Of a stretch of DNA of 64,000 nt, positions 21,751-60,964 are shown in pieces. The translations under genes and the position numbers were made by a program. The stretch is from positions 4,996-68,995 of the forward strand of contig JBAYHR010000004.1 in the NCBI GenBank assembly GCA_041666045.1, written 5' to 3'. The notes beneath the pieces were generated by a model, which was not told where the DNA came from, searched no databases, and saw nothing but the letters and a program-made list of their open reading frames with translations. Each line of letters starts with the position of its first letter. Positions within the stretch are counted from its first letter, which is position 1. Source of the stretch: Minisyncoccota bacterium. Lineage in GTDB: Bacteria > Patescibacteriota > Minisyncoccia > Phycocordibacterales > UBA9973.

Positions 21751-24084
21751 TTATAATTTCTTTGCCTTAATTCTTAATGAATTTGAAACGACCGATACAC
21801 TAGATAATGCCATGGCCATCCCTGCAAAAATTGGATTAAGTAGCCAACCAAATATTGGATAAAAAATCCCTGTTGCAAGTGGAATACCTATAACGTTGTA
21901 GAAAAATGCCCAAAAAAGATTCTGTCTTATTCCACGCATAGTAATTTTAGACAATTTTATAGCTTTAGCAAGTTTTGAAATGTCTCCGTATAAAAGCGTA
22001 ATTCCTGCAGATTCTATCGCTACATCTGTGCCTGTGCCCATTGCTATACCTACATCAGCTTGTGCAAGCGCTGGAGCATCATTTACGCCATCTCCAGCCA
22101 TAGCGACAATCTTACCTTCTGCTTGTAAAGACTTAATAGTATCTAATTTATCTTCTGGCATTACCTCGGCTAATACTTCATCAATGCCAACTTGTTTTGC
22201 AATATATTCTGCTGTTTGTTTATTATCTCCTGTAAGCATTATAATTTTAACTCCAAGCTTGTGAAGTTCAGCAACTGCCTGCATTGATTCTTTTTTTATA
22301 GAATCTGCAATCATAATAAAACCAAGAACTTTTTCCTTCGTCATTAAAACAACTGGCGTCTTTCCTTCCAATGTAAATTTATCTAATTGCGCTGTATCAA
22401 AAGAAATTTTTAAATCATTTATCAATCCAACACTACCAATAAAATATTCTGTATTATTTATTAATCCTTTTAACCCTCTTCCTTTTATGCTTTCAAAATT
22501 GGAAACTTCTTTTAGTTGAATTTTCTTTTCTTTAGAATAATTTAATATTGCATGAGCAATCGGATGTTCTGATTTATTTTCCAAAGACGCAAGAATAGAA
22601 ATCTGATCTACATCTAAATTTTGTATATCAATAAGTTCTGGTTTACCTTTTGTTATTGTTCCTGTTTTATCTACTACTACAACATTTACCTTATGAAGTT
22701 TTTCCAATGTTGCAGCGTCTTTTATTAAAATTCCTTCTTTTGCTCCTTTACCAACTCCCACAATAATAGCAGTTGGTGTAGCAAGTCCAAGCGCACAAGG
22801 ACAAGCTATCACAAGAACACTAACAAACGAAACAAGACCTAAAGACAAAGCGCTAGATAAGCCAAGCGTGCTTGAACCAAGAAATATCCACAAACCTAAT
22901 GACAAAAATGAAATAACTAAAACAATCGGTACAAAAATTCCTGAAATTTTATCCGCTAATGCTTGAATCGGTGCTTTACTACCTTGCGCTTCTTCAACCA
23001 TTTTTATTATATGTGCAAGCAAAGTCTCAAATCCTACTTTCGTAGCTTTAAAATTAAATGACCCGCTAGTATTTATCGTCCCTGCGGAAACTGTATCATT
23101 TATTTCTTTATGAACTGGCATAGGCTCTCCAGTTATCATTGATTCATCTATATACGAACTCCCTTCCACTACTACTCCATCGACAGCTATCTTAGACCCT
23201 GGTTTAACGACAATAATATCTCCGTGTACAACTTCATTTACAGAAATTTCAACTTCTTGTCCACCTCTTACAACCAAAGCTGTCTTTGCTTGCAAATTTG
23301 AAAGTTGTTCTATAGCATCTCCTGTTTTTAATTTTGATTTAGCTTCTAAATATTTTCCTAAAGTTATAAAAGCAATGACGATAATAGTAATATCAAAATA
23401 AGTTTGATCTACATTTAAAAAATCCTGAAGTTGCGTAGAAAAAAAGGTAATTATCATACTGTATAAGTATGCGACTGAAGTTCCTATTCCTATCAACGTA
23501 TCCATATTTGCTCTACCATAACGCAAAAATCTATACACCCCTAAAAGATATGGCTTACCTACAAAGAACAACATATATGTAGCCATAACTGGCAACATAT
23601 AAACAAAAAGTTTTTTAATTAAAATAGATGGCTCAGATACTAATTCATATTTCATTAAAATATCCCAAACCATTACAAAAAGACTAATTATTGCAAGTGG
23701 TATTGCAGACATTACTTTTAATTTCATACTATTTATTTCAGCAAGTTTATCTTTTTTATTTTGACCTATTCCTGTATGCGCCTTATGTTCATCTTCACTC
23801 ATCCCCATCCCGTTAGAGGCAGAGGGTCGCTGCGAGCCCTCGCGGCCTCTAACGGGACCCATACTCTCTGCAGTCTCAGTAATTAAAGAATACCCTAAGT
23901 GTTCTATGTTTTTAGAAAGATTCTCCACATTAATTTTATTTTCATCAAAAGATAATTTTGCAGATTCATTCCCATAATTCACTTCAGCCGAAATTACTCC
24001 ATCTATTTTCTTAAATGTCTTTTCTATTATTCCTGCGCATGAAGCACAATGCATTCCTTTTATTTTGTAAATATTTTTTATCAT
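21751..24084 (-). CDS. copA: Copper-translocating P1B-type ATPase CopA
   Basis: N-terminal HMA GMHCASCAG; CPC motif; DKTGT; GDGVNDAP; 777 aa. Confidence 0.9.
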   Translation of the reverse strand: MIKNIYKIKGMHCASCAGIIEKTFKKIDGVISAEVNYGNESAKLSFDENKINVENLSKNIEHLGYSLITETAESMGPVRGREGSQRPSASNGMGMSEDEHKAHTGIGQNKKDKLAEINSMKLKVMSAIPLAIISLFVMVWDILMKYELVSEPSILIKKLFVYMLPVMATYMLFFVGKPYLLGVYRFLRYGRANMDTLIGIGTSVAYLYSMIITFFSTQLQDFLNVDQTYFDITIIVIAFITLGKYLEAKSKLKTGDAIEQLSNLQAKTALVVRGGQEVEISVNEVVHGDIIVVKPGSKIAVDGVVVEGSSYIDESMITGEPMPVHKEINDTVSAGTINTSGSFNFKATKVGFETLLAHIIKMVEEAQGSKAPIQALADKISGIFVPIVLVISFLSLGLWIFLGSSTLGLSSALSLGLVSFVSVLVIACPCALGLATPTAIIVGVGKGAKEGILIKDAATLEKLHKVNVVVVDKTGTITKGKPELIDIQNLDVDQISILASLENKSEHPIAHAILNYSKEKKIQLKEVSNFESIKGRGLKGLINNTEYFIGSVGLINDLKISFDTAQLDKFTLEGKTPVVLMTKEKVLGFIMIADSIKKESMQAVAELHKLGVKIIMLTGDNKQTAEYIAKQVGIDEVLAEVMPEDKLDTIKSLQAEGKIVAMAGDGVNDAPALAQADVGIAMGTGTDVAIESAGITLLYGDISKLAKAIKLSKITMRGIRQNLFWAFFYNVIGIPLATGIFYPIFGWLLNPIFAGMAMALSSVSVVSNSLRIKAKKL
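23809..23856. mobile_element. 48-bp GC-rich palindromic mini-element inserted in frame in copA (CCCGTTAGAGGC...GCCTCTAACGGG)
   Basis: About 70% GC in a 30% GC gene; 12-bp terminal inverted repeat related to the MITE family TIR; flanked by CCCCAT/ACCCAT (ATGGGK on the coding strand); encodes PVRGREGSQRPSASNG in the HMA-TM1 linker. Confidence 0.6.
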
Positions 24085-34453: not shown

Positions 34454-35413
34454 TTATTTATTTAAATATCTTCTAACTGCAAGGAAAGAAGAAAGCATTC
34501 CTAACATAACTCCTGATAATAAAACTATTCCCGAGATTTGAAAAAAATTTGAAAGATAATAATCGTATAAGTTAAGACCTAGAAAATCTGTCATATTATT
34601 GCCAAGCCAAATTGTTACAGGCAAATATAAAATTAATGTTATCGCTGTGGCAATAAAACCATAAATTGCGCCTTCAATGACAAAAGGTCCGCGAACTTGC
34701 ATTTTACTTGCGCCAACAAGACGCATTATGCCTATCTCTTCTCTAGAAATAAAAATGGCAAGACGAATAGTATTGAAAGTAATAACTAAAGAAATAATTA
34801 TTAAAATAAAAGTAATAATAAATCCTAATTTTTGAGAACCAGCAATAATTGAATTTAATCTATCTATAACTAATTTATTTTGATGATAATTTACTTTATC
34901 TATTATAGATGCAGAACCAAGCACAAGCGCATTATCAGACTTCATAAAATTTGCAATAGTCTCATATTGAGAAACTTCTTTTGCTTTTACATTAAGATAT
35001 CCTCCTAAAGGATTGTCTTTTATTTCATCAAGAGCTTGAATCGTAGGATAATCATTTGAGTGACGTTCACGGAAAAGTTTAAGCGCTTCTTCATCCGAAG
35101 TATAAGAAACTTGAGCTACTTCTGGTAATTTTTCAAGAGATGCTTTTAAAGCTAAAATTTTATCTTCTGAAGAACCAACATTAAAATAAATTGTCACATC
35201 AACTTTATTTTTAATCTGATCTAAAGAAGAATACAATACCGCGTGTAAAAATATTATTGTTGCTATAACAGATAAAGTGATAGTTGTGACCAAAACAGCC
35301 GCCCATGAAATAATCCCATTTCTTTTAAAATTCACAAAACCTGATTTTATAATTCTTCTTAATCCAGTCATCCCATTAAAAATTTTAATTAATAAGCTTA
35401 ATCTTCTAACCAA
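34454..35413 (-). CDS. ftsX: Cell division permease FtsX
   Basis: FtsX topology with four TM helices; adjacent to ftsE. Confidence 0.8.
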   Translation of the reverse strand: MVRRLSLLIKIFNGMTGLRRIIKSGFVNFKRNGIISWAAVLVTTITLSVIATIIFLHAVLYSSLDQIKNKVDVTIYFNVGSSEDKILALKASLEKLPEVAQVSYTSDEEALKLFRERHSNDYPTIQALDEIKDNPLGGYLNVKAKEVSQYETIANFMKSDNALVLGSASIIDKVNYHQNKLVIDRLNSIIAGSQKLGFIITFILIIISLVITFNTIRLAIFISREEIGIMRLVGASKMQVRGPFVIEGAIYGFIATAITLILYLPVTIWLGNNMTDFLGLNLYDYYLSNFFQISGIVLLSGVMLGMLSSFLAVRRYLNK

Positions 35414-35447
35414 GTCCCATGAATTTTTAACGGGACAAGTATGTTAA

Positions 35448-47400: not shown

Positions 47401-48009
47401 GTAAACTAAATCTTCTTTTTTATATGTTCTAAAGATTTCATAGAGTGGGGGTAAATTTAAACGAACTTCAAAATCAACTGGTGTAATTGAGTATCTGTCT
47501 GTATTATTTTTATCCTTTTCTTTATCAACCCTCACTGGTAGTGAAAATAAATAAAATTGTTTTAACACTAATTTTGCTTCAGCATTTTCAATAAGCTTTA
47601 GTTGTATATTTTCTTCAACTTCTTCCTCGTTTTCTATTATTGGTTCTTCTAAAACTTCAAAGTCAAACTTACCGAAGCGAAGAATTGTTTCTTTCGTGAA
47701 GGAGTCATTTTTTGCCTTATTGTATATTTCGTCTATCTGCAATGCGAGAGCTTTTTCTGCTTTATACTGCTCTGCAATTTCTTCAGTAATATCCTTTGGG
47801 TCGGTATTATAATAACAATCCAAGTTAACAATTTCACTCAAATTGCCGTCAGTATCTCCATTGATAAGATTTGTTAAAGAAAAGTATTTTTGCGGTAATT
47901 TAATGTCTAGTGATGTCCCCCTATTAAAACCTGTCGGCCTAGTTAAACTTAAATATCCCAAACAGTATTTAATATAAGAATTTAAGGAAAATTCCATAAG
48001 TAAACTCAA
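44476..48009 (-). CDS. Large SF1 helicase (AAA_11/AAA_12, Upf1/DNA2-like) fused to a C-terminal DUF559/Vsr-like endonuclease domain
   Basis: Walker A IIQGPPGTGKSETI, Walker B VVFDEASQ, C-terminal ...FKIDFVITNLKNGNQLAIECDGPTHF restriction-endonuclease-like domain; 1177 aa. Confidence 0.7.
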   Translation of the reverse strand: MSLLMEFSLNSYIKYCLGYLSLTRPTGFNRGTSLDIKLPQKYFSLTNLINGDTDGNLSEIVNLDCYYNTDPKDITEEIAEQYKAEKALALQIDEIYNKAKNDSFTKETILRFGKFDFEVLEEPIIENEEEVEENIQLKLIENAEAKLVLKQFYLFSLPVRVDKEKDKNNTDRYSITPVDFEVRLNLPPLYEIFRTYKKEDLVYEFLNDYVKMESEEAFSIPITSEKAFLDLWHILKAKLKLTEATFNEKSFTLEELRLTLAPRANFFLVEDLTKLSREKEELLENTSLSGWFSEEGLNINSDVCEEKALYFPFPYDKFQRATTSLLGNKASIIQGPPGTGKSETISNIISHLAVNKNKVLFVSQKPQALRVVKDKLKTLEVPLLFGYIPSVKFQQLNDEESDTISSQLASLDTYGAQKNNIKDNSNLGEFTQTTDESLSKRDRSIALERNVYELEEKKCEYDFLQELPELNEEKILTNLTEELHSSYIKTQKRISENNTLIESLEAISRKYNLDRGLFSDFAFSDLVKTVLLDVKKTGFDRSFNLGRYINNLSRKIRLKSHLTKLPKEIYEEINSILGKDISRHIATQELEQLLRFCSYWEATIENEKLEISLKEIEDNLDLSRENLSELFKFLKEKSITATELVVKLSDRITLNHDQKNLVDEITKLKKEVTSKNYITRKEIISQYLSAIIEDNIKRNVSQVKIYRKLQELQKAFKKSKKAFKTFDKLKSDPNNFETILNVVPVWIMDLDDASRLIPLVANLFDYVVFDEASQCNIAYTIPSMYRAKKSIFVGDPEQMRDSTVMFKSNNAFDQLASRFKVPESLQIKPTGTAVQSVLDIAKTRFGIPKILQYHYRSPMELIGFSNKYFYEPKGKRLIALNNKYLTYQDTNRIMVLHNIQNNGVGEISDNTNRAEAIKAFELYQEMVDDPKYEGKTFAVLTFFNDQAELIRKVFEDNRIKESEKLKIAVIEGIQGDEKDIIIYSFVIRDPSQKRQYIPLTGETGDIKADINAGRVNVAFSRARLQVHCILSLPIEKIPNGIWIKKYLEYVRDNGEVSASKLALKKFDSFFEEEFYYLLKKKLGRGYTIQNQVESCGFKIDFVITNLKNGNQLAIECDGPTHFKDNIDEAYGIYVESDIQRQQVLESAGWNFFRIGYSEWIEDDEGKEKIVGNIKLEI

Positions 48010-48054: not shown

Positions 48055-48387
48055 TTATGCAACATTAAACTTCTCAAAAACCTGAAATACGTCCACTGTT
48101 TTCTTCCTAATATCAATCTCGTCGTCATATACGATAAGCATTTCAAGCGAAGAATGTCGGCTAAACTTTCTTACGTCTCTGACATCAAGTTTTTTGAGCA
48201 AGGCAGTAATGAAGAAGTGGCGAAATCCGTGAACTCCTTTTTCAATCCCAACTTCTTTACACAAAGAACCTAGCTGGCGTTTTATTGTCATTGTGGTTAT
48301 CCTTTCACTTTTTCTATTTCCCATACTTTTAAACAAAGCTCCACTTCCGACTTTATTAGTTTTTATGTATTCTCTCAAAACATTCAC
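48055..48387 (-). pseudogene. Truncated tyrosine recombinase/integrase (C-terminal catalytic fragment only)
   Basis: HGFRHFFITALL (box II HxxR) and SRHSSLEMLIVY (catalytic Tyr region); the usual N-terminal ~250 aa are absent. Confidence 0.6.
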
Positions 48388-50063: not shown

Positions 50064-50110
50064 GATATTTATTAAATTAACATAAAACAGAAAAAATATC
50101 TATTTTACTG

Positions 50111-50184
50111 TGTCGACGGGTGGAGTTGAACCACCGACCTTGGCTTTATGAGTGCCATGCTCTAACCACCTGAGCTACGTCGAC
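50111..50184 (-). tRNA. tRNA-Met or tRNA-Ile2 (anticodon CAT), elongator type
   Basis: G1-C72 paired; anticodon loop CTCATAA; T-arm GGTGG-TTCAACT-CCACC. Confidence 0.7.
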
Positions 50185-50279: not shown

Positions 50280-50350
50280 AGCGGGGTAGAGAAGAGGCAT
50301 CTCGTAAGGCTCATAACCTTAAGACCCACGTTCGATTCGTGGCCCCGCAA
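50280..50350 (+). tRNA. tRNA-Met (anticodon CAT) with 1:72 mismatch (A:A) and A73, possible initiator
   Basis: U8, A14, G18G19; anticodon stem TAAGG/CCTTA with loop CTCATAA; T-arm CCACG-TTCGATT-CGTGG. Confidence 0.65.
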
Positions 50351-50360
50351 CAATAATAAA

Positions 50361-50993
50361 TTAAATAAATCCAAATTCACGGAAAACTTGCTCATATAAA
50401 GCAACTACCCTTTTTGCTTCCCTACTTGTAAGTTCAAATTGTAAACCTTCATGCGCTATTCTGTTTCTTACAATATGGGCTTCCCAAGCATCATCAACAC
50501 TGCGAAACCTATCTCTATCAATCATTTTTAATTTTTCTCCCAGATTCTCTCCCTTATATCCAAGTTGATCCAGCAACGCTTCAAGCATAGAATCTGCTTC
50601 TATTATTGCAACTTTCCAATCAGCTGAATTTTCTGAAAAAAGATGATCTAATACTCCTTCCCATCTTTTATTTTTTTGTCCTTCTCCTTTATTCATCAAT
50701 GCCTTTTCTTTTTCAGCTTGCTTTTGTGCGTATAATGCAATTTGTTGATGTAAAAATTCTTTTTCTTTTTTTCTTATTTCAAATATGCGAATAGCGCAAT
50801 AAATAATTATAATAAGAAAAAATAATGCAAGAAAAAAAAGTATAAATTTTAAAATACCTACAAATTCAGCATTAAAAAGATTACGAAAAAAATTAAGAAT
50901 TTGATTGAATAAATATTCCAAATTCAAAAAAGTTGGATCAAAAAGTTTATTTTGAGTAGCTGTATTTAAATTTAATGATTGTGATAAATCCAT
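50361..50993 (-). CDS. Membrane-anchored HEPN-like (DUF4145-type) protein
   Basis: N-terminal TM; C-terminal helical domain with RNRIAHE (Rx4H HEPN motif). Confidence 0.45.
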   Translation of the reverse strand: MDLSQSLNLNTATQNKLFDPTFLNLEYLFNQILNFFRNLFNAEFVGILKFILFFLALFFLIIIIYCAIRIFEIRKKEKEFLHQQIALYAQKQAEKEKALMNKGEGQKNKRWEGVLDHLFSENSADWKVAIIEADSMLEALLDQLGYKGENLGEKLKMIDRDRFRSVDDAWEAHIVRNRIAHEGLQFELTSREAKRVVALYEQVFREFGFI

Positions 50994-51111
50994 CCCGTTA
51001 GAAATAGGAAATCTTTAGATTTCCGTAGTTAATTTATTAATAATAATTTCTATGCACTTCATAATTTATATATCCCACGAAACACAACTTAACTTTTTGA
51101 TTTCTAACGGG
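50994..51111. mobile_element. MITE-like element, copy 1 (118 bp; TIR CCCGTTAGAAAT; TSD ATCCAT)
   Basis: Terminal inverted repeats, internal palindrome GGAAATCTTTAGATTTCC, flanked by a 6-bp direct repeat; sits between the gatA stop and the downstream gene start. Confidence 0.75.
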
Positions 51112-51118
51112 ATCCATA

Positions 51119-52516
51119 TTATATATTTTCTCTTAAATCCTTTTCAATAGCAAATAATGACTCATCAGAAAATGCTGGACCAGTAAATTGTATCCCAAAT
51201 GGCAAACCATTTTCTGAAAAACCAGAAGGTATTGAAATTGAAGGAATCCCAGCAATATTTGCTGGTACAGTAAAAATATCAGATAAATACATTTGCAAAG
51301 GATCTTTCTTTTCTCCAAATTTAAAAGCTGATGTAGGAGTGGTAGGTGTAACAACAAAATCAACTTCTTTAAAAATATTTTTAAATTCTTCTTCTATGGC
51401 ATAACGAACTTTCCAAGCTTTATTATAATAAGCATCATAATATCCATGAGATAAAACGTAAGTTCCCAAGATTATTCTTCTTCTAGTTTCCGCTCCAAAG
51501 CCAACTGACCTGCTTTTTTTATATGTTTCAAATAAAGTATCTCCATCTTTTCGCAATCCATATCGCACTCCATCTAATCTGGATAAATTGGTAGAAACTT
51601 CTGCAGGCATAATAATATAATATACTGCCAAAGAATATTTTGAATATGGCAAATCTATATCAATTATTTCATAACCTTTATCTTTTAATTTTTGAATTGA
51701 TTCTTCAAAATTTTGTAAAACTTCTTTATCTACTCCTTCTTTTAACCAATCACGCGGAATGCCAATTTTTTTGCCTCTTGATTTAGAAATCAAACCAATA
51801 CTAGTAGAATCCATTTCATCTTTTCCAGAGATAACATTAAAAATTATTTGCGAATCTTCTGAATTCTTTGCAAATGGACCTATTTGATCTAAAGAAGAAG
51901 CCATAGCCATAACTCCAGAACGCGAAACAATGCCATAAGTAGGTTTCATTCCAACTATTCCGCAAAAACTTGCTGGTTGACGTATAGAACCTCCTGTATC
52001 AGATCCTAAAGCGCCAAGAGCCATACCAGATGCCACAGCAACAGCAGAACCGCCAGAAGACCCGCCGGGTACGCGTGAAATATCAAATGGATTTTTAACA
52101 GAACCAAAAGCAGAATTTTCAGTTGAACTTCCCATTGCAAATTCATCCATATTCGTCCTACCTATTAAAACTGCGCCAGATTCTTTTAATTTTTTAATTA
52201 CAAAAGCGTCATAGCTCGCAGTATAATTTTCTAACATTTTAGAACCTGCGCTTACTTTTTTTCCAGTTATTAAAATATTATCTTTGATTGCAATTGGTAT
52301 ACCTGTTAAATTGGTTCCCTTGCCAGATTTTATAATTTCATCCGCTTTTTTTGCTTGATCTAAAGCATCAGAAAAAACTTCAAGAAATGCATTTAATTCT
52401 TTATTTTTTTCTTCTATATTTTTTAAACAAGCTGAGACTAATTCTACAGAAGTTAATTCTCCAGAATTCATCATTTCCCCTGCTTTTTTAATAGTTAAAT
52501 TTTTTACATCAAGCAT
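51119..52516 (-). CDS. gatA: Glutamyl/aspartyl-tRNA amidotransferase subunit A
   Basis: Amidase signature GGSSGGSAVAVASG; 465 aa. Confidence 0.95.
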   Translation of the reverse strand: MLDVKNLTIKKAGEMMNSGELTSVELVSACLKNIEEKNKELNAFLEVFSDALDQAKKADEIIKSGKGTNLTGIPIAIKDNILITGKKVSAGSKMLENYTASYDAFVIKKLKESGAVLIGRTNMDEFAMGSSTENSAFGSVKNPFDISRVPGGSSGGSAVAVASGMALGALGSDTGGSIRQPASFCGIVGMKPTYGIVSRSGVMAMASSLDQIGPFAKNSEDSQIIFNVISGKDEMDSTSIGLISKSRGKKIGIPRDWLKEGVDKEVLQNFEESIQKLKDKGYEIIDIDLPYSKYSLAVYYIIMPAEVSTNLSRLDGVRYGLRKDGDTLFETYKKSRSVGFGAETRRRIILGTYVLSHGYYDAYYNKAWKVRYAIEEEFKNIFKEVDFVVTPTTPTSAFKFGEKKDPLQMYLSDIFTVPANIAGIPSISIPSGFSENGLPFGIQFTGPAFSDESLFAIEKDLRENI

Positions 52517-52526
52517 ATAAATAAAA

Positions 52527-52799
52527 TTACATAATCTTTTTTACTTTAATAAAACCATCCTGCGAATCTGGAAATTGATTAATTATTAATTCACTAGAAA
52601 AAACCGAAGAAATCGGCACATCTTCTCGCCAAACATTTTTATTTTCATATTCTATATTTACATCTTTTACCTCAATAGATTCTATTTGCTTCACATAACC
52701 TAAAATACCATCTAAATCTTTTAATAAAGTTTCCTTTTCTGTATCTGAAATCTCTATTTTAGCAAGCTCTGCAAGCTTTTCTACATCTTTAATTTCCAT
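52527..52799 (-). CDS. gatC: Glutamyl/aspartyl-tRNA amidotransferase subunit C
   Basis: 90 aa; position directly upstream of gatA. Confidence 0.75.
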   Translation of the reverse strand: MEIKDVEKLAELAKIEISDTEKETLLKDLDGILGYVKQIESIEVKDVNIEYENKNVWREDVPISSVFSSELIINQFPDSQDGFIKVKKIM

Positions 52800-52916
52800 C
52801 CCGTTTAGAAACAGGTCGCGGTCTATTTCAAAAAATAAACTACTCCTGTCTTACTTATTTAAATAATAATACAACACAATACCCCCTTAAAAACTGCGAC
52901 CGCGGTTTCTAACGGG
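52800..52916. mobile_element. MITE-like element, copy 2 (117 bp; same TIR; TSD TCCAT)
   Basis: CCCGTTTAGAAAC...GTTTCTAACGGG with extended GC-rich inverted arms AGGTCGCGGT/ACCGCGACC; lies between the htpX stop and the gatC start. Confidence 0.75.
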
Positions 52917-52943
52917 ATCCATTATTAGATTATAGCAAAAATT

Positions 52944-53822
52944 CTATCTTCCTAAAAGAGCCTTTACTCTAGCTTCCATTGGTGGATGAGTTGAAAATAA
53001 ATTAGATATTTTTTTAACTCCAAAAGGATTAGAAATAAACAAATGCGCTGTCGCTGTATTTGCACTTGCCATAGGTCGAGAATAATTTGAAATTTTTGTA
53101 AGAGCATTCGCTAAACCTTCTGGATAACGAGTAAGTAGTGCGCCTGATGCATCTGCTAAAAATTCTCTTTTGCGAGAAATTGCCAATTGAATAAGTACAG
53201 CAAAAATCGGCGCAAGAATAGACAAAACTATACCTACAACTAACATTAATCCGCCACCTCTATCATTATCTCTATTTCCACCACCAAAAAACATTGAACG
53301 CAAAAACATATCTGCAACAATAGAAATAAAACCAACTAAAACCACCACAACTGTCGAAAGTAAAATATCTCTATTTCCTATGTGAGAAAGTTCGTGGGAA
53401 ATAACTCCTTCTAATTCATTTTTGTTTAATATCTGCAAAAGCCCCGTGGTCACAGCCACAACTGCATGCTCTTTATTTCTTCCAGTTGCAAAAGCATTTG
53501 GAGAAACATCATTTATGATACAAAGTTTTGGCATAGGCAAACCTGCTGTGATAGAAAGATTTTCAACAATATTCCATAATTCTGGATTTTCTTCTTTTTT
53601 TATTTGTCGTGCCTTATTAAGTTTTAATGCAATTTTATCAGAATACCAATAACTCATCACATTCATCCCAATACTAAAAATTACAAAGAAATATAAAATA
53701 TTTGGATTTCTATAATATTGAGAAAAGAAAAATCCAATACTAATAACTATCACAAAAAACGCGCTCATCAAAAGCCAAGTCTTTGTAACATTTCTTGATT
53801 GATGTGTATATAACGTCGCCAT
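52944..53822 (-). CDS. htpX: Zinc metalloprotease HtpX (M48)
   Basis: HELSHI zinc motif; four TM helices. Confidence 0.85.
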   Translation of the reverse strand: MATLYTHQSRNVTKTWLLMSAFFVIVISIGFFFSQYYRNPNILYFFVIFSIGMNVMSYWYSDKIALKLNKARQIKKEENPELWNIVENLSITAGLPMPKLCIINDVSPNAFATGRNKEHAVVAVTTGLLQILNKNELEGVISHELSHIGNRDILLSTVVVVLVGFISIVADMFLRSMFFGGGNRDNDRGGGLMLVVGIVLSILAPIFAVLIQLAISRKREFLADASGALLTRYPEGLANALTKISNYSRPMASANTATAHLFISNPFGVKKISNLFSTHPPMEARVKALLGR

Positions 53823-53826
53823 TTAT

Positions 53827-54393
53827 TTATTGTATAACAACAGGAATCAAGATAGATTTATCATTTTCAGGAAGACCTGAAGCATTATCGTTATGTAATT
53901 CAATATAACCAGGACCAGCAACTAAACCAGTGAAATCTAAAGTTGTATTAAATGTCACAGGATCTATCGTCATCCAAGCGCTTGTAGCTGTACCATAAGT
54001 AGTTCTTAACACACTTTTACTAGAATCAAGAATTCTCACAATAATATTTCCTTCAAAAAAGTATCCTCCTCTTACTGAACCATTAGCTTGCACTACTCCA
54101 GTAACGATTGAACCTACTGGTATTGAAAAAGAAACTAAATCACTTTTATTTCCCAAAACACTTACATTTGCAATAGGTTTAGTAGAAGTACTTGGTTTAT
54201 TAGGAGTATTAGTATTTACAGTGTCTTGATTAATATTTACACTATCATCTGTAATAATTACATTATCTTCTGCTGTAGGAATTGAAACATCATTTACTAC
54301 TGGTTCTGTAGTTTTTTTATTTAAAAAATAAACAGTTCCTCCTAATGCCACCACTACCACTATCACTAACAATAATTTTCCAAAATTTGTCAT
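53827..54393 (-). CDS. Hypothetical membrane-anchored extracellular protein
   Basis: N-terminal TM; Thr/Asn-rich linker. Confidence 0.35.
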   Translation of the reverse strand: MTNFGKLLLVIVVVVALGGTVYFLNKKTTEPVVNDVSIPTAEDNVIITDDSVNINQDTVNTNTPNKPSTSTKPIANVSVLGNKSDLVSFSIPVGSIVTGVVQANGSVRGGYFFEGNIIVRILDSSKSVLRTTYGTATSAWMTIDPVTFNTTLDFTGLVAGPGYIELHNDNASGLPENDKSILIPVVIQ

Positions 54394-54416
54394 AATATTT
54401 TTTAAGTTATTAATAA

Positions 54417-54968
54417 TTAAAATTTAACTTCAACTGGATTTTGAGCAACATCATTATCTGGCAGATCAAAGAATTCCATTTTAGAAAACTTAAATGTATT
54501 AGCTATCACATTTGATGGGAAACTTTGGATACTAATATTTAGATCACGAACATTTGTATTATAAAATCTTCGCGCAGCTTGAATCTTATTTTCTGTATCA
54601 GAAAGTTCTGATTGTAAACCTAAAAAGTTTTGATTTGCCTTTAAATCTGGATAAGCTTCTGCTATAGCAAAAATTGATTTCAAAGCGCCTGTAAGCATAT
54701 TTTCAGCTTCTGCGTGACCTTTTGTAGGCCCTTGCGCTCCCATAGCCATAGATCTTGCTTTAGTAACATTCTCAAATGCAGAAGATTCATGAGTCGCATA
54801 ACCCTTCACAGCATTTACTAAATTAGGAATCAAATCATATCTTCTTTTTAATTGAACTTCAATGTCAGCCCAAGCTTCTTGTGCTCTATTTCTAAGAGAA
54901 ATAAAACGATTAAACGCATAAACCACCCATAAAATCACTACCCCTAAAATTATCCAAAGATACATCAT
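54417..54968 (-). CDS. lemA: LemA family protein
   Basis: N-terminal TM; LemA-like RRYDLIPNLV motif. Confidence 0.75.
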   Translation of the reverse strand: MMYLWIILGVVILWVVYAFNRFISLRNRAQEAWADIEVQLKRRYDLIPNLVNAVKGYATHESSAFENVTKARSMAMGAQGPTKGHAEAENMLTGALKSIFAIAEAYPDLKANQNFLGLQSELSDTENKIQAARRFYNTNVRDLNISIQSFPSNVIANTFKFSKMEFFDLPDNDVAQNPVEVKF

Positions 54969-55013
54969 ATATTTATTAAAATTAAGTTAATAATAACTAT
55001 TAAAAAATTGAAA

Positions 55014-55910
55014 TTATTTTTTCTTTGCTTGCCACTCTTCCATTAAAACTAAAAGAGGCGAAGCCAAGAAGATAGATGAATATGTTCCAAAGAACATTCC
55101 AGCTGTAAGCATCAAAGCAAAATATTTTGTAGATGTAGGACCAAAGAAAACGAGAGATAACAATACTAATATAACAGTTAAAGATGTACAGATAGATCGC
55201 ACGTATGATTGTTCTAAACTTTTACCAACTGTTTCATTAAAAGTAGTTTCAACTCTGTTTTTTAAATTTTCTCTTATTCTGTCAAAAATAACAATAGTAT
55301 CAGAAACTGAAAGTCCTAAGATAGTAAGTACCGCCACAACAAACAAAGTATCTAACTCTGCTCCATAGTAATGTGAAAGCATTGAAAAAAGTCCAACAGG
55401 AATAATAACATCATGCAATAGAGATATAACAGCCATGAAACCATATTTCCAAGAAGAAACAGGCTTAGAAACTTTTCTGAAAGCATAAGCGATGAAAAAT
55501 ATAATAGCGAGTGATACTAATATGATAGCTATGATAGCTTTCTTTGTAAGTTCACGTCCAACTGAAGGTCCGATAGAATTAAAACTCTTTTCTTCTAAAG
55601 CGCTCTTCCCATCTTGAGAAAGTGTCTTCAAAATTAATCCATGTTCAGCTTCATTTAAATCACGAGACTTTACAATATAACCCATATCTCCTGTAGGTTG
55701 TAATAAAATGGAACCAAAATTTAAAGCTTCTAGTGAAGCGCTTAAGTCAGTTTGTAATGGTCTTGCATCCTTATAAACTACTTCAGTCAAAGCTCCTCCT
55801 TTAAAATCAATACCAACTTTTAATCCAAATACAGAAATTGAAACAATTGAAAGTATGACTAGTACAATTGAGATTCCGATAAATATTTTTTTGTTTTTTA
55901 TTATAAACAT
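55014..55910 (-). CDS. secF: Protein translocase subunit SecF
   Basis: Six-TM SecF fold; position downstream of secD. Confidence 0.85.
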   Translation of the reverse strand: MFIIKNKKIFIGISIVLVILSIVSISVFGLKVGIDFKGGALTEVVYKDARPLQTDLSASLEALNFGSILLQPTGDMGYIVKSRDLNEAEHGLILKTLSQDGKSALEEKSFNSIGPSVGRELTKKAIIAIILVSLAIIFFIAYAFRKVSKPVSSWKYGFMAVISLLHDVIIPVGLFSMLSHYYGAELDTLFVVAVLTILGLSVSDTIVIFDRIRENLKNRVETTFNETVGKSLEQSYVRSICTSLTVILVLLSLVFFGPTSTKYFALMLTAGMFFGTYSSIFLASPLLVLMEEWQAKKK

Positions 55911-55927
55911 TGATTTTATTTTACTTA

Positions 55928-57289
55928 TTATTTTGATAAGCCTGAACTAAATAAAAATCTTGCTAACTTACTTTCTCCAATAAAACTAATTGCTGAAAGG
56001 AAAATTCTTGTGATAGTAATAGCAGAAAGCATTGATACCAATACACCCATACCAAGAGTCAAAGCAAAACCTTTAATCAGTGATGTACCAAACCAGAAAA
56101 GGATAATAGCAGTTATGATACTTGAGGTATTTGAATCACGGATAGAAAACCAAGCGCGAGAGAATCCAGCAGAAACAGAATCTGCAATGGTTCTTCCAGA
56201 ACGTAATTCTTCTTTTACACGTTCAAAAATAAGAACGTTTGCATCCACTGCAATACCTATTGAAATAATAAAACCGGCAATGCCTGCAGCAGTCAGAGTA
56301 ACTGGTAAAAGTTTGAATAAAGTTAACATAATAACAATATAAATACATAAAGAAAGTACTGCTATTAATCCTGGTAATCTGTACCAAAGTATTAAAAACA
56401 ATGCTATAAATAAAAATCCAATTATTGCAGCTTTTACTCCAGAATTCATGGCATTATCTCCTAAACTTGCTCCGATAGTTTGTTTTGAAAGTAATGTTAT
56501 AGGTACAGGAAGAGCGCCAGAGTTTAACCTGCCAACTAATTGTTTTGCTTCTGTCGGTGTAAAATTTCCTGAAATTTGAGCAGTACCGCCTGTTATTTCT
56601 TCACGAACAACTGGAGTAGAAATTGGTGCCCCATCTAGATATATTGCAACAATTTTTCCAACATTATCTTTTGTTATTTGCGCAAACAATTCTGTTCCCT
56701 TATCATCAAATTGTAAACCTACTTTTGGTTCACGAGTATTTTGATCAAATTCTAAAGTTGCTTTCTTTAAATATCTACCAGTTAATTCTGTATCAACAAA
56801 TTGTTGACTTACATCTACAGTTGCTTTTCCATCTTTATCTACAGTTAATTGTTGAGGTTGATCTTTTGGTGCTTCAATTTTAAATTCCAAAAGTGGAGTC
56901 TGTCCGATCATAGCTGTAGCTTTTTCAACATCAGTAATACCTGGAAGATCAACAATAAGCTTCTCTTCCCCTCCTGAAACGAAACCTCCTTCTTGAATCT
57001 GCACTACTGGTTCAGAAACTCCAAAAAGATTAACTCTGCGTTCTATAACATCACGAAGAGCGTTCATTGAATTTGAAACTTCACCAGCTTTTATTGCTGA
57101 AACATCTGCTTTGTAAATCAAATGACTTCCCCCAGAAAGGTCTAATCCCAAACGAAATGGAGTCTTCTTAAAAAATGAACTTTGATTTTCAAAATTTGAA
57201 TTTAATTTAGGTTCAGATTTAAATACAAAAAAAGCAATACCAATTCCTAATAACAATATAATAATAGCTAATATCCTTTTTTTAATCAT
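55928..57289 (-). CDS. secD: Protein translocase subunit SecD
   Basis: SecD periplasmic and TM domains; start set at the internal Met (MIKKRILAII) because the upstream ORF extension is encoded by a family B repeat element. Confidence 0.85.
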   Translation of the reverse strand: MIKKRILAIIILLLGIGIAFFVFKSEPKLNSNFENQSSFFKKTPFRLGLDLSGGSHLIYKADVSAIKAGEVSNSMNALRDVIERRVNLFGVSEPVVQIQEGGFVSGGEEKLIVDLPGITDVEKATAMIGQTPLLEFKIEAPKDQPQQLTVDKDGKATVDVSQQFVDTELTGRYLKKATLEFDQNTREPKVGLQFDDKGTELFAQITKDNVGKIVAIYLDGAPISTPVVREEITGGTAQISGNFTPTEAKQLVGRLNSGALPVPITLLSKQTIGASLGDNAMNSGVKAAIIGFLFIALFLILWYRLPGLIAVLSLCIYIVIMLTLFKLLPVTLTAAGIAGFIISIGIAVDANVLIFERVKEELRSGRTIADSVSAGFSRAWFSIRDSNTSSIITAIILFWFGTSLIKGFALTLGMGVLVSMLSAITITRIFLSAISFIGESKLARFLFSSGLSK

Positions 57290-57306
57290 ATTAATTCTTT
57301 TCCATG

Positions 57307-57335
57307 CCCCGTAGGAAGCTATGCTTTCCTTCGGG
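57307..57335. repeat. GC-rich palindromic element, family B copy 2 (CCCCGTAGGAAGCTATGCTTTCCTTCGGG) in the secD leader
   Basis: About 85% identical to 21256-21284. Confidence 0.55.
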
Positions 57336-57468
57336 ATTCCACATAAATATGAGACTATTCTATACGTTTTCAAAAAAATATGCAATAGTTGCATAAATAT
57401 CGTTCTATATGAATAAATATTATAATTTATATGAATTAAAAAAGCCCCAAATAAAATTATTCAGAGCT

Positions 57469-58089
57469 TTAGTAGTTTGTTAAATTTTGCAAAATAATCC
57501 ATTTTAGATCATCTGAGGTTTCAATATCAATATTAATAGGAATTTTAAAAGTGAGAACTTCAACACTTTTTGGAACATATCGTCTTATTCCACGAAAATT
57601 TATTTCATTAATAAATTTACTTAAAGATGTTTCTATTACACCATTCTCCTTATTAGCAGCATGAATAACAGTTTTATTTTCTGTTGCAATCCCAACATGA
57701 CCAACTCCATCCACAGGATTACTAATATAATAATCGATATAACCAGAAATAAAAACTAAATCACCAGCCATAATTTCTTTAATATCAACAATCTCACCCA
57801 GTTCACGTTGTTGAATAGATCTTCTTGGCAACCAAATACCACGTTGAGCATATAAATATTTCATAAAACTAGAACAGTCTAAAACTGCTGGAGCTTCAAA
57901 AATTCTTACACCACGTCTATATTGTGATTTACCAACACACTGTTTAGCTAATTCAAGAATATCTACTTCAATTTTTTCAAAACCTTTTCTATTTAATATT
58001 TCTAAGGCTTCCTTATGCGAAATAGGTAAATTAAATGAATCAAACATAACAGCACAACGACTTTCTGTAGCTTTATATTCAAATTCCAT
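57469..58089 (-). CDS. NlpC/P60 family peptidase-like protein (no signal peptide)
   Basis: DCSSFMKYLYAQRGIWLPR (catalytic Cys context) ... GHVGIA (His). Confidence 0.6.
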   Translation of the reverse strand: MEFEYKATESRCAVMFDSFNLPISHKEALEILNRKGFEKIEVDILELAKQCVGKSQYRRGVRIFEAPAVLDCSSFMKYLYAQRGIWLPRRSIQQRELGEIVDIKEIMAGDLVFISGYIDYYISNPVDGVGHVGIATENKTVIHAANKENGVIETSLSKFINEINFRGIRRYVPKSVEVLTFKIPINIDIETSDDLKWIILQNLTNY

Positions 58090-58492
58090 TTTTCCTTCTT
58101 TTAATTGTTATTGAACCTTGTAAAAGACAACACAGAGTGGAATTCAAAAAATCTTTTGGAAAATTATCCCCTCTATGCAAAGAAAGCGTTGGAAAAACAT
58201 AAACTTCTTTTATTGGATCATTTGTAATTTGGCTTAAAAAATACATCATTTGTTGGTCATTCGTTTCTCCTACTAATGGAGTAAAAAATTTTCTTATTGC
58301 TGTTAATTCATCTACTGAAAAAAACAAACAAGCATCTACTATGGTAGCGTGTTTATTTTTATTTTTTCTTTTTTCAATGCTTACAGATTTCTTAATTATG
58401 TGTTCAAGCATTTCTAAAAAAGAAATTTTTCCTGTAAATTCTTCAAATTCAATAAGCCTTGAAGAACCTTTTCCGTTTAATTTTAAAACCAT
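58079..58492 (-). CDS. Hypothetical protein
   Basis: ORF only. Confidence 0.3.
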   Translation of the reverse strand: MVLKLNGKGSSRLIEFEEFTGKISFLEMLEHIIKKSVSIEKRKNKNKHATIVDACLFFSVDELTAIRKFFTPLVGETNDQQMMYFLSQITNDPIKEVYVFPTLSLHRGDNFPKDFLNSTLCCLLQGSITIKRRKNGI

Positions 58493-58613
58493 ATTACCTC
58501 CTTTTTTAATGAACTTTTATATCTTTAAAATACCAAACTAAAATTATCTTGTCAAGATATATTAAAAAAATTAATGATTTGCCTTAATTTCATATTTTTA
58601 ATAGAATTAACAT

Positions 58614-59336
58614 ATGGAAAATAATAAAAGTTATGTAGTGTTTGGTTTTATTTTAGGTCTCTCTATTATTATAAGCGCAGGGTTAGGATCTTTTACTTTT
58701 TATAAACTCCGTTCAATGGATTATATTTCAACAACTGGTTCTGCAAAAAAAGCAGTGACTTCAGATAAAGTAAAGTGGACTTCAAGTATCACTCGTCCTG
58801 TAAAAGTTTCAACTATTAAAGATGGTTATGTAAAAATGGATGCAGATTTAAAAGAAGTAAAAACTTTCTTGGCTTCAAACGGAATTGCATTAGAATCAAT
58901 AGATATCTCCCCTGTCTTTATGAATGAAGTTTATGACAACAATCCTGGACAAGAGAAAAATTATAATTTAGTTCAAAACATTGAAGTTCAATCTGAAGAT
59001 GTCCAAAAAATTTCTGAATTATCAAAAAATACAAGTTCTCTAATCATAAGCAAGGGAGTTATCTTTTCTACAAACTCTGTTGAATATTATTATTCAAAAC
59101 TTCCACTTGTTCGCGTAGAACTTTTAGCAAATGCAGTCGGTGATGCAAAAGCTCGCGCAGAACAATTAGCTATTGCAGGAGGAAAGAAAATCGGTGTATT
59201 AAAATCTGCTTCAAGTGGAGTAGTGCAAGTAATGGCTCCTAACTCTGTAGAAGTTTCTGATTATGGAATGTATGACACTTCAAAAATAAATAAAGAAATA
59301 ATGGTCACGGTAAAAGCAAGTTTTGAAATAAATTAG
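58614..59336 (+). CDS. SIMPL/DUF541-like membrane-anchored protein
   Basis: N-terminal TM; overall SIMPL-like pattern (weak). Confidence 0.45.
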   Translation: MENNKSYVVFGFILGLSIIISAGLGSFTFYKLRSMDYISTTGSAKKAVTSDKVKWTSSITRPVKVSTIKDGYVKMDADLKEVKTFLASNGIALESIDISPVFMNEVYDNNPGQEKNYNLVQNIEVQSEDVQKISELSKNTSSLIISKGVIFSTNSVEYYYSKLPLVRVELLANAVGDAKARAEQLAIAGGKKIGVLKSASSGVVQVMAPNSVEVSDYGMYDTSKINKEIMVTVKASFEIN

Positions 59337-59406
59337 CAATTTAAAAACTCAGTAATAAAACTTTTCGCCTGCGGGCACTGGCTTCGTCTTGTCCGCCAGA
59401 AAAGAT

Positions 59407-59964
59407 TTATTGCTGAGTTTTTTGTTTATTTAACTTCTTATATAAAAATCTGACTAAATAAGCAGTTAAAATTCCCAAAATAAAACCTCCTAAAATATCA
59501 ATTGGGAAATGCACTCCTGCGACAATACGAGCTACTCCAATTAATAATGCAAAAAATATAAATAAATAACCAATTTTTTTGTGACTGAAAAATATAGCAA
59601 AAGCTAAAGCCATATAGAATGTCGCATGACCAGACGGAAAAGCAAAACCTGTTTCCGGAATAAGACTTGATACATTTTGAAATTCTACAAATGGTCTAGG
59701 TGTATGAATTAACAATTTTAAAACTTGTGAAATACACCAAGCAAAAATTCCAGAGAAAAAAACCAAAACAATTTCCTTCCATCTTTTTGCAAAAACTTTA
59801 AAAGGATTTTTTGAAAGTAAAACATCATGGTGAAAAAGTAAAAATATTCCCGCCAAAAAAATTACAATATAAGGAAAAGTATGTGCTATAAAAACAACAA
59901 ATTTATCGAAAAATTCTGATCTATGAGCTAAATTATAAAAAAAGAAAAAAATTGTATTATTCAT
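59407..59964 (-). CDS. PAP2 family phosphatase (undecaprenyl-diphosphatase-like)
   Basis: KxxxxxxRP-like, PSGH (FPSGHATF), and SRxxxxxHxxxD-like (RIVAGVHFPID) motifs. Confidence 0.75.
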   Translation of the reverse strand: MNNTIFFFFYNLAHRSEFFDKFVVFIAHTFPYIVIFLAGIFLLFHHDVLLSKNPFKVFAKRWKEIVLVFFSGIFAWCISQVLKLLIHTPRPFVEFQNVSSLIPETGFAFPSGHATFYMALAFAIFFSHKKIGYLFIFFALLIGVARIVAGVHFPIDILGGFILGILTAYLVRFLYKKLNKQKTQQ

Positions 59965-60081
59965 CCCGTTAGAAATAGGAAATCTTTAGATTTCCGTAGT
60001 TAATTTATTAATAATGACTTCTATATACTTCATAATTGTTTATCTTACAAAACACAACTTAACTTTTTAATTTCTAACGGG
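59965..60081. mobile_element. MITE-like element, copy 3 (117 bp; TSD ATTCAT); supplies the last codons and stop of folD
   Basis: About 90% identical to copy 1; flanked by a 6-bp direct repeat; the folD reading frame ends NESR-TAG inside the element TIR. Confidence 0.75.
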
Positions 60082-60964
60082 ATTCATTGTATGTTTGTTT
60101 TAAATTATTTTTTGCTACATTTACTACATTTTTCAATAACATAGCTACAGCCACAGGCCCCACTCCCCCAGGCACAGGCGAAACAAAACTCGCAACATCT
60201 TTCACTGAATCCAAATCAACATCTCCAACGATAGCACCATTTTCTTCAGAAGTTCCAGCATCTATTATCACAACTCCGCTCTTGACCATATCACCTGTAA
60301 TATATTTTCCATTCCCCATTCCAGAAATTATTATATCAGCTTGTTTTATAAGATCTTCTTTATTCTCCCCGCCTGCATCGCTATGCGAAGCATTGCGGGC
60401 AGGTGTTTTGCGAGTAATCACTTTTGGATTCAACCCACGAAATTTAAGAAGTGCCGTAACGGGTTTTCCCACTAATTCACCTTGACCTAAAACAACTATT
60501 TTTTTACTTTTTAAATCTAAATTCAAAGAATCTAAAATCTCCATACAAGAAAGCGGAGCTGGCAGACCTAAATCTATTTTTCCACCATAAAATTCTTTAC
60601 TCCTCTCTTCTCCTAAACAATCAACATCAAGACTAGGATCAATCGCATCTAAAATCTTTTTTTTATCTAAAGATTCTGGAAGTGGAAGTTGAATAATTAT
60701 TCCACACATATTTGGCATTTTATTTAAAATTTTTATTTCTTCCACAAGCTCATTGGTAGATATAGTTGAAGGAAAAATAGCATCATGGAAACTAATGCCG
60801 ACAGATTCTGCTGTACGCTTTTTCATACGCACATATTGAGTTGAAGCTAAATCATCACCAATAAGCACATCGCAAAAAATAGGCTTAAACGATAAAGAAG
60901 CCACATCTTTTTTTAATTTAGATAAAATTTCATCGCGTATTTTTCTCCCGTTAATTATTTTCAT
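60074..60964 (-). CDS. folD: Bifunctional methylenetetrahydrofolate dehydrogenase/cyclohydrolase FolD (with 13-aa GC-rich insertion)
   Basis: FolD core motifs (YVRMKKR, GGVGP); 296 aa; insertion PARNASHSDAGGE relative to canonical FolD. Confidence 0.9.
   Translation of the reverse strand: MKIINGRKIRDEILSKLKKDVASLSFKPIFCDVLIGDDLASTQYVRMKKRTAESVGISFHDAIFPSTISTNELVEEIKILNKMPNMCGIIIQLPLPESLDKKKILDAIDPSLDVDCLGEERSKEFYGGKIDLGLPAPLSCMEILDSLNLDLKSKKIVVLGQGELVGKPVTALLKFRGLNPKVITRKTPARNASHSDAGGENKEDLIKQADIIISGMGNGKYITGDMVKSGVVIIDAGTSEENGAIVGDVDLDSVKDVASFVSPVPGGVGPVAVAMLLKNVVNVAKNNLKQTYNESR

Follow-up and report, generated by a model that had tools for sequence, protein, structure and literature searches.

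Five miniature elements in a Minisyncoccota contig are probably cut-down copies of a very small GIY-YIG-coding mobile element

Short repeat-bounded elements, three of which sit exactly on start codons, were found in a 64,000-nucleotide stretch of DNA from a Minisyncoccota bacterium (GenBank contig JBAYHR010000004.1). This stretch, hereafter the window, belongs to a metagenome contig of 70,981 bp (ENA ERZ27249449; 30% G+C), and its gene starts were inferred from open reading frames (ORFs) alone. In this study, we found that the window probably carries five internally deleted, non-autonomous derivatives of a transposable element that is very small and codes for a GIY-YIG nuclease. The five members share their ends with a unit of about 276 bp that carries a GIY-YIG gene, and would thus be cut-down copies of that unit. 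Members of the family are inserted sequences with a 4-bp target duplication, their presence is polymorphic among relatives, they are linked to the GIY-YIG gene, and this gene is under selection. Whether the nuclease is also the enzyme that mobilises the element is a question on which we infer about equal chances for either answer. The boldest proposal, namely a previously unrecognised superfamily in which an 84-residue Slx1-like nuclease acts as transposase of the smallest autonomous bacterial transposon (~276 bp), is possible, albeit somewhat doubtful.

A sequence-only reading of the window had described a family of units resembling miniature inverted-repeat transposable elements (MITEs), about 117 bp long and present in three full copies. 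The three copies lie where it had placed them and copies 2 and 3 have this length, but copy 1 is 118 nt long, and the family in the window comes to five members once copies 4 and 5, found by a relaxed search, are counted.

Copy 1: core 50994-51111 (118 nt), entry 50989..51116, minus strand; ATGGAT-CCCGTTAGAAAT...ATTTCTAACGGG-ATGGAT.
Copy 2: core 52800-52916 (117 nt), entry 52795..52921, minus strand; ATGGAT-CCCGTTAGAAAC...GTTTCTAAACGGG-ATGGAA.
Copy 3: core 59965-60081 (117 nt), entry 59960..60086, minus strand; ATGAAT-CCCGTTAGAAAT...ATTTCTAACGGG-ATGAAT.
Copy 4: core 23809-23856 (48 nt), entry 23804..23861, minus strand; CCCGTTAGAGGC...GCCTCTAACGGG, G+C-rich and short.
Copy 5: core 35372-35434 (63 nt), entry 35371..35440, minus strand; CCCGTTAAAAAT...ATTTTTAATGGG, divergent.

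The three elements of 117-118 nt end in CCCGTTAGAAAY/RTTTCTAACGGG and are located on the start codons of three minus-strand genes. Throughout the window, the inverted arms measure 12-13 bp and the units, 48-118 nt long, contain no intact ORF; the copies retain both ends and a right subterminal hairpin (CTACGGAA-loop-TTCCTAT). The two-arm pattern gave 0.00 matches per window in 100 dinucleotide shuffles, as compared to two exact pairs observed. Copies 1 and 3 are identical at 107 of 118 positions (91%), in agreement with the earlier figure of about 90%, and copy 2 belongs to another interior subfamily which has only the ends and scattered interior positions in common with them.

The junctions can be read to the base. 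In copy 1, the terminal bases are T 51112 and A 50993 and the duplication TGGA occupies 51116-51113 and 50992-50989; the ATG (50993-50991) of the 210-residue gene that follows is composed of the element's last A and the TG of the duplication, and the gatA stop codon lies 4 nt upstream of the upstream ATGGAT. Copy 2 has terminal bases T 52917 and A 52799, the duplication TGGA at 52921-52918 and 52798-52795, and the gatC start codon at 52799-52797; its right arm carries one additional A (TCTAAACGGG), and there is an TGCTATAAT box directly upstream of its upstream ATGGAT. In copy 3, the terminal bases are T 60082 and A 59964, the duplication TGAA lies at 60086-60083 and 59963-59960, and the PAP2 start codon is 59964-59962. 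Here the folD ORF ends in ...KQTYNESR with its TAG (60076-60074) inside the left arm, and in silico removal of the copy gives ...KQTYNE followed by a stop; the sequence-only reading had copy 3 supply the last codons (NESR) and the stop codon of folD. As also noted before, the downstream repeat of all three copies is the start codon plus the second codon of the next gene, that is, of ORFs 50361-50993 (210 residues), 52527-52799 (GatC by Pfam) and 59407-59964 (PAP2). The GatC and PAP2 assignments held, whereas the HEPN-like label attached to the 210-residue protein finds no support in Pfam, where the protein has no significant match and its best hits are marginal membrane-like ones (E ~0.05). 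The upstream ATG of copy 1 opens the 26-codon ORF (MDPVRN...) described earlier, and those of copies 2 and 3 open ORFs of 11 and 6 codons, respectively.

Copies 4 and 5 differ in setting. Copy 4, with the duplication TGGG (flanks ATGGGT/ATGGGG), lies within the ORF of a 777-residue CopA-type P-type ATPase (21751-24084), in the linker joining the HMA domain to the membrane part; its inserted unit of 54 nt is 18 codons in frame without a stop, read as PVRGREGSQRPSASNG. Copy 5 is immediately 5' of the ftsX ATG (35371-35369) and has no duplication, and its 5' flank, ACTTGT, is also seen at related copies in other genomes.

The duplication was defined with 146 copies for which flanks were collected. 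The base just outside each arm is complementary to its counterpart in 96% of them (C:G 73, T:A 65), and this outer pair therefore belongs to the element. In a 6-nt register, the flank-to-flank match by position was 0.53, 0.81, 0.71, 0.71, 0.77 and 0.39, which identifies the duplication as the middle 4 bp with the consensus T-N-N-A. A perfect 4-bp duplication was present in 82 of the 146 copies, whereas 1000 random re-pairings of the flanks gave a mean of 10 and a maximum of 22. The direct repeats reported at 5-6 bp are thus real, but they are 4 bp long (TGGA, TGGA and TGAA in copies 1 to 3), and because the outer T/A (or C/G) pair is the element's own, the seemingly imperfect repeat ATGGAT/ATGGAA reads A-[TGGA]-T(element)...(element)A-[TGGA]-A. 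Position -6 is R in 71% and position +6 is Y in 67% of the 146 copies, and each junction approximates a palindrome, R-TNNA-Y, the last base of which is supplied by the element.

Further copies exist beyond the window, a point that the sequence-only reading had proposed to check. In a scan of one genome per species with the pattern CCCGTTAGAAA-(41-100 nt)-TTTCTAACGGG, a sample biased by the need for AGAAA arms and a length of 63-122 nt, the same ends were found at 120 or more genome loci. About two thirds of these loci are in the Candidate Phyla Radiation (CPR)/Patescibacteria, including many candidate phyla and Saccharibacteria, and the remainder are in Deltaproteobacteria, Planctomycetota, Omnitrophota, Nitrospirae, WOR-3, KSB1 and others, the taxon labels being those of the records. 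The interiors vary widely among genomes: no foreign copy is more than 74-78% identical to a window copy (at most 74% for copies 1 and 3), and a blastn comparison of the window copies with those of other genomes yielded no long matches. Compared with this, the 91% identity between copies 1 and 3 points to amplification of these two inside this genome.

The first longer units with the same ends were a 279-bp unit in Omnitrophota (L062) and a 276-bp unit in RAAC4_OD1_1 (L112), each with an ORF of 84-86 residues. The complete element is 274-281 bp long with a 13-bp terminal inverted repeat, Y-CCCGTTAGAGAT ... ATCTCTAACGGG-R, and its sole gene encodes an 84-residue stand-alone GIY-YIG nuclease of the UPF0213/bacterial Slx1-like type. 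The parent ORF, which is missing from the window copies, matches Pfam GIY-YIG (PF01541) with 59.6 bits; its nearest solved structures are the UPF0213 proteins 1zg2 and 1ywl, and it scores 19-23 bits against the NCBIfam group I intron endonuclease model, whose cut-off is 56. At seven further loci, the gene is bounded by both repeats and co-oriented with the next host gene, and all nine distinct full-length copies, L062 and L112 included, show both repeats and a co-oriented host gene. Their insertion sites include the 6PGL/6PGD, YebC/RuvC and TraC/TraG junctions.

The gene is interlocked with the ends. Its last codons and TAA lie in the right end (GGC GCT TCC TAT CTC TAA, giving GASYL and a stop), and in six of the seven further loci the ORF ends exactly 4 nt (CGGG) before the host ATG; in L211, whose right arm has an extra A, this spacing is 5 nt. 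The protein search returned 374 matches, of which the best 120 were examined as close homologues. All of these 120 are 83-92 residues long and 80-100% identical, and 120 of 120 end in G[AVT]S[YC][LF], the peptide encoded by the right end of the sequenced full-length copies. Furthermore, 14 of the 15 longer forms (91-92 residues) begin with M-[NDSG]-PVRD, which is what results when the frame runs from the duplicated host ATG-RRT into the left end. The nuclease gene is under strong purifying selection, with pairwise ratios of nonsynonymous to synonymous substitution (dN/dS) of 0.05-0.26 at dS from 0.3 to saturated, and the ends are invariant even between proteins only 61% identical and across phyla. 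An exhaustive search gave 669 clusters (50% identity) at E<=1e-10, and many diverged relatives still end in ...YLTG, ...LSLTG or ...ISNG, the expected right-end read-through peptides.

In a MAFFT alignment, the window copies match full-length elements only at the two ends and in the right subterminal segment (CTACGGAA...TTCCTAT). In the full element, CGGAAGCGC pairs with GCGCTTCC at long range across the ORF, and this pairing is the counterpart of the right subterminal hairpin. Full-length and miniature copies occur together in at least three assemblies (RAAC4_OD1_1, JALYJR01 and JBAZKU01).

An alternative is that the ends are recognised by a conventional transposase, of the DDE or another type, encoded elsewhere and so far unseen. 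The window copies would then be ordinary MITEs, and the GIY-YIG protein would be cargo or would assist the element, for example as a homing-type nuclease whose cuts at empty sites favour retention, as in the case of TnpB in IS605. Inverted repeats with a fixed short duplication are a DDE hallmark, GIY-YIG enzymes are not known to carry out transposition chemistry, a palindromic target preference would suit a dimeric transposase as well, and a 1-2-kb autonomous element would have escaped scans that reached repeat pairs up to ~330 nt apart. Against this stand about 0.9 Mb of sequence around 120 copies in which no long repeat-bounded unit carries a transposase-like ORF. Lone half-sites were considered as ends of a long element and rejected: most pair with a nearby diverged arm, and so resolve into short diverged elements, or sit inside genes. 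In addition, the nuclease ORF is physically interlocked with the right repeat in all of the 120 best homologues, its in-frame forms are tied to the left repeat as well, and the gene is under strong purifying selection and keeps the same repeats at 61% protein identity across phyla. We therefore regard an unseen transposase as unlikely.

Several points nevertheless weigh against derivation from, and mobilisation by, a GIY-YIG element. Tblastn detected no GIY-YIG gene in the window or in its 71-kb contig, and the dependence of the window copies on a nuclease acting in trans from elsewhere is assumed. The term deletion derivative would rest on the ends and the hairpin, homology elsewhere being weak. 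To our knowledge, no GIY-YIG protein performs transposition, and the fold is a nuclease fold for which we know of no strand transfer; moreover, at 84 residues the protein is too short to include a DNA-binding domain as well. Some copies have a duplication of 3 or 5 bp, and a sub-class to which window copy 5 and two full-length copies belong lacks a target duplication altogether, which the simple model does not account for. Lastly, selection against disruptive insertions must contribute to the enrichment at start codons described below and confounds it, and the genome scan, as stated above, sampled the family unevenly.

An ATG or GTG followed by an open frame of 60 or more codons directly adjoins 65 of the 146 copies, and an ORF of this length is opened in 77% of the ATG/GTG-abutting orientations versus 14% of the other orientations. 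The association depends on lineage: 50 of 78 CPR copies (64%) abut a start codon versus 6 of 48 copies from other phyla, and it runs parallel to the terminal pair, which is T..A in 51 of 78 CPR copies and C..G in 40 of 48 others. Start-codon landing is thus a feature of the CPR branch and not of the whole family. The final base of the element provides the A of the rebuilt ATG, and the stop codon of the gene before the element is often either the TGA in the ATGA kept on that side or the left-arm TAG (CCCGT-TAG). In the window, the first ATGs of long ORFs account for 36 of 588 ATGRR sites, and three of the four copies with a duplication are at gene starts. Beside selection, a mechanistic preference for starts may play a part.

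Insertion duplicates the 4-bp target T-N-N-A within the loosely palindromic R-TNNA-Y, and A-TGRR at a gene start appears to be the preferred target in the CPR. The host ATG stays in the upstream copy of the target, together with the TGA stop of the gene before it where the two overlap. A new host ATG is rebuilt from the terminal A of the element and the duplicated TG, leaving both neighbouring genes intact. A dimer of the nuclease could cut R^TNNAY with a 4-nt stagger, at both junctions as well as at the target; such cuts would allow precise excision, leave TNNA overhangs on the element, and yield the 4-bp duplication after ligation or fill-in by the host. Recognition of the 13-bp ends would confine cutting to the element junctions; alternatively, an Slx1-like preference for branched DNA might direct it to the stem base. 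Full-length copies at host starts would borrow the transcription and start signals of the host, possibly with translational coupling, since their arrangement TAA-CGGG-ATG would permit coupling by termination and reinitiation. The window copies, which encode nothing, would need a nuclease gene elsewhere in the genome. At these copies, the upstream ATG keeps the native start context and ribosomes probably begin there and read a short peptide, and the real start, at the base of a 14-bp stem, would presumably be used after unwinding by the ribosome or by re-initiation.

This stem raises the question of whether the hairpins are instead a vertically inherited cis-regulatory RNA, such as a translational control or processing stem at the start codon. 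At the window elements, the A and U of the start codon are paired within the 14-bp stem, folding is more stable than in shuffled sequences (z -3.3 to -4.8), the start-codon position recurs in many genomes, and the host is nearly devoid of Shine-Dalgarno sequences. Relatives without the element speak strongly against it. A metagenome scan with GatA yielded 80 loci, and the complete element was found at none of the 80. In the two closest relatives (L122 and L123, GatA identity 80% and 76%), both gatCA junctions are uninterrupted: gatC starts with ...CAAT-ATGCAG in L122 and with ...CCT-ATGGAA ATA in L123, the latter being the exact A-TGGA-A target predicted for copy 2, and the gene after gatA starts with AATAAT-ATGAAC AAT TTA TCC CAG in L122. 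Empty sites were obtained in this way for two of the five window copies (copies 1 and 2), and they identify the sequences as insertions rather than an ancestral RNA. The comparison of orthologous loci proposed by the sequence-only reading thus gave close relatives with a single target copy and no insertion. Different, unrelated genes follow the element in different genomes, target duplications are present, copies also occur inside ORFs and in other non-start contexts, and the stem sequence is invariant and does not covary. Rfam gave only tRNAs for the whole window at the gathering score, and nothing relevant for the elements and a full-length copy at E<=1. A regulatory RNA is therefore very improbable.

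Equally slim is the chance that the hairpin is removed at the RNA level, as a mini-intron or by translational bypass between the repeated AUGGAU, with expression from the upstream start. Identical codons flank the hairpin like the take-off and landing sites of phage T4 gene 60, and GIY-YIG genes are typical passengers of group I introns. Against removal, no ribozyme or intron core was detected, and removal of the hairpin alone would leave the 4-nt duplication. Furthermore, six copies lie inside ORFs (copy 4 in copA and five others), and all six are stop-free with an inserted length divisible by 3, for which the chance from length alone is (1/3)^6; this argues that such copies are translated rather than removed from RNA, and the CopA linker would gain 18 residues from copy 4. 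Genes split by an out-of-frame copy were looked for, with no convincing case. Integron attC-type sites, despite a superficial similarity (48-121 nt, variable interior, conserved GTTAGA/TCTAAC ends and the extra unpaired A of copy 2), and an assembly or chance artefact deserve next to no credence, since the motif order is reversed (GTTAGA...TCTAAC here, RYYYAAC...GTTRRRY in attC), the neighbours are housekeeping operons and not cassettes, and assemblies of many laboratories and assemblers show consistent flanks where chance predicts 0 occurrences.

We thus return to a GIY-YIG-coding parent with miniature derivatives. The elements behave as MITEs, having inverted repeats, a duplication, presence/absence polymorphism and ends shared with a longer coding element, and the parent is an inverted-repeat transposon of a known general kind; mobilisation in trans by the parent's protein, the remaining mark of a MITE, is inferred with roughly even confidence for and against. 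The earlier description of MITE-like, non-autonomous elements with inverted repeats, inserted at start codons with target duplication, was supported by each of the tests proposed for it, including the search for further copies and the comparison with relatives, and its statement that no transposase is present in the window stood, none being seen. The candidates it had named for the cognate element did not hold: in place of an IS630/Tc1 or IS200/IS605 relative, we found the ~276-bp unit coding only for a small GIY-YIG nuclease. An IS630/Tc1-mariner MITE is rejected because the duplication is TNNA and not TA and no such transposase was seen near 120 copies, and a palindrome-associated element derived from IS200/IS605 because inverted repeats and duplications are both present here; elements of that type lack both, carry subterminal hairpins and insert on the 3' side of a fixed tetra- or pentanucleotide.

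Bacterial MITEs such as Correia/NEMIS of Neisseria, RUP and Nezha are likewise short, non-coding, multi-copy elements with inverted repeats and a fixed duplication, which form hairpin transcripts, insert near genes with effects on expression, and are products of internal deletion in a coding element whose ends they share. Unlike the present family, they trace to insertion sequences with DDE or other established transposases, whereas only the ~276-bp GIY-YIG unit is found here, and the target of Correia and IS630 is TA instead of a 4-bp TNNA with CPR copies exactly on the start codon. Repetitive extragenic palindromic (REP) sequences and bacterial interspersed mosaic elements (BIME), mobilised by REP-associated tyrosine transposases (RAYT), are extragenic palindromes of 20-40 bp with a GTAG or CGTC head, usually located after stop codons; they were rejected since our arms start with CCCGTTAGA and the units measure 48-121 nt and lie at gene starts. 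The palindromic elements of Rickettsia (RPE) resemble the family in being palindromic mobile repeats tolerated within genes as in-frame, stop-free insertions, but no RPE-encoded protein is known, RPEs are not specific for start codons, and no sequence relationship is evident. By analogy, piggyBac (TTAA) may be compared, for its palindrome-like 4-bp T..A target is duplicated at both ends and re-ligation of 4-nt overhangs would make precise excision possible; unlike our element, it depends on a DDE transposase with hairpin intermediates, and no such enzyme was found here.

The nuclease itself has two sets of relatives. Like the Seg and I-TevI proteins of phage T4, it is encoded by a seemingly selfish gene between conserved genes, co-oriented with them and without an obvious promoter of its own. 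Those enzymes, in contrast, have 200-250 residues with DNA-binding modules, act at one cognate site by way of break repair, and lack terminal inverted repeats and target duplications. A homing endonuclease gene was therefore rejected as a description even though the catalytic domain is present, because the protein is the domain only (83-92 residues) and occupies many unrelated sites with repeats and duplications. The closest family comprises the UPF0213/Slx1-like proteins (BH0048, 1zg2; EF2693, 1ywl; E. coli YhbQ). Like these, the element's nuclease is a minimal GIY-YIG domain, and as read from the alignment it appears to retain Tyr, Arg and Glu of the catalytic site. In the literature, members of this family count as repair or structure-specific nucleases that are inherited vertically (PMC1564403), whereas the CPR branch described here is repeat-bounded, multi-copy and polymorphic in location.

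No published description of the element was found in the full-text literature, a scope that leaves out most subscription journals, and a prior description is possible. If the nuclease mobilises the element, GIY-YIG nucleases would join the enzymes of bacterial transposition as a new class, the minimum size of an autonomous mobile element would drop to ~276 bp, and the widespread UPF0213/Slx1-like family (the 669 clusters at E<=1e-10) would be at least partly selfish; were the transposase role true, a large part of UPF0213 would be selfish rather than devoted to repair. The family also shows, in a natural setting, how a transposon can settle on start codons and operon junctions while both genes stay unbroken, in hosts with tiny, gene-dense genomes largely lacking Shine-Dalgarno sequences. 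Whatever the mechanism, one invariant 13-bp end across phyla marks gene flow among groundwater and sediment lineages. In practical terms, the repeats break assemblies, add or alter residues in real proteins (the folD tail and the CopA linker), and cause spurious N- and C-terminal extensions of gene calls (MxPVRD..., ...LSLTG). Among protein hits P0121-P0270, nuclease ORF calls are often extended through the ends into host DNA, with artificial N-terminal MNPVRD... or C-terminal ...RFLSLTG extensions of up to 600 residues, many of them in public annotations.

In unrelated genomes, the sub-class without a target duplication is preceded by the conserved 5' flank ACYTGT (AC(T/C)TG(G)T), and a TATAAT box is often found 8-12 nt upstream. 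Its members are as follows.

Window 35372-35434: ACYTGT sub-class (copy 5).
L035:687-752: ACYTGT sub-class.
L037:22-98: ACYTGT sub-class.
L058:3397-3459: ACYTGT sub-class.
L069:4813-4918: ACYTGT sub-class.
L075:2509-2572: ACYTGT sub-class.
L211:1484-1757: ACYTGT sub-class.
L228:1184-1459: ACYTGT sub-class.

Nested or back-to-back insertions were seen at L071:2335-2437, L081:726-846, L112:3882-3889 and L118:6517-7099, either as an element within an element or as two elements parted only by the 6-nt GTTCAC. In two metagenome-assembled genomes (L012, L015:2167-5033, L061 and L030), copies of 76-92 nt always lie within one longer flank, TAGCATATAAAC-element-GTAAACATACAG, and in L015 the gene of a 686-residue secreted protein is bracketed by two inverted copies; the element may ride in a larger repeat or form a composite unit there. 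An autonomous element between these two copies was rejected, as the 2.7 kb between them encodes the secreted protein and no transposase. Carriage by phage is rare, with three short matches on two of 2.9 million viral contigs, and a phage vector was rejected since these were the only matches and no full-length copy was among them. At L002:4340-4720 (minus strand), another small GIY-YIG gene lies between two copies of a tRNA-gene 5' half (GGGCCCATAGCTCATCCGGTAGA), and the target of this branch appears to be a tRNA gene, of which a long stretch is duplicated upon insertion.

Regarding gene starts in the window, a Shine-Dalgarno-like motif precedes only 3 of 48 ORFs of at least 150 residues, and many ORFs have TATAAT or TGnTATAAT 6-10 nt 5' of the ATG (for example, those starting at 62881, 47997, 40791, 49757 and 41617 on the minus strand), a pattern that suggests leaderless or Shine-Dalgarno-independent initiation in this organism. 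A consensus scan for promoters inside the element gave none beyond chance, and its best site, TTGAAA-18-TATAAT, is host DNA upstream of copy 1. The 210-residue protein (50361-50993, minus strand) has an N-terminus conserved in L122 and L123, and just downstream of its gene, which follows copy 1, two divergent tRNA-Met(CAT) genes, 50110-50184 (minus strand) and 50280-50351 (plus strand), lie ~100 nt apart. Finally, a 110-residue Phage_integrase fragment (48055-48387, minus strand) adjoins a 1173-residue AAA_11/AAA_12 helicase with an MTES_1575 domain (44476-48009, minus strand), and the two may be a remnant of another mobile or defence element.

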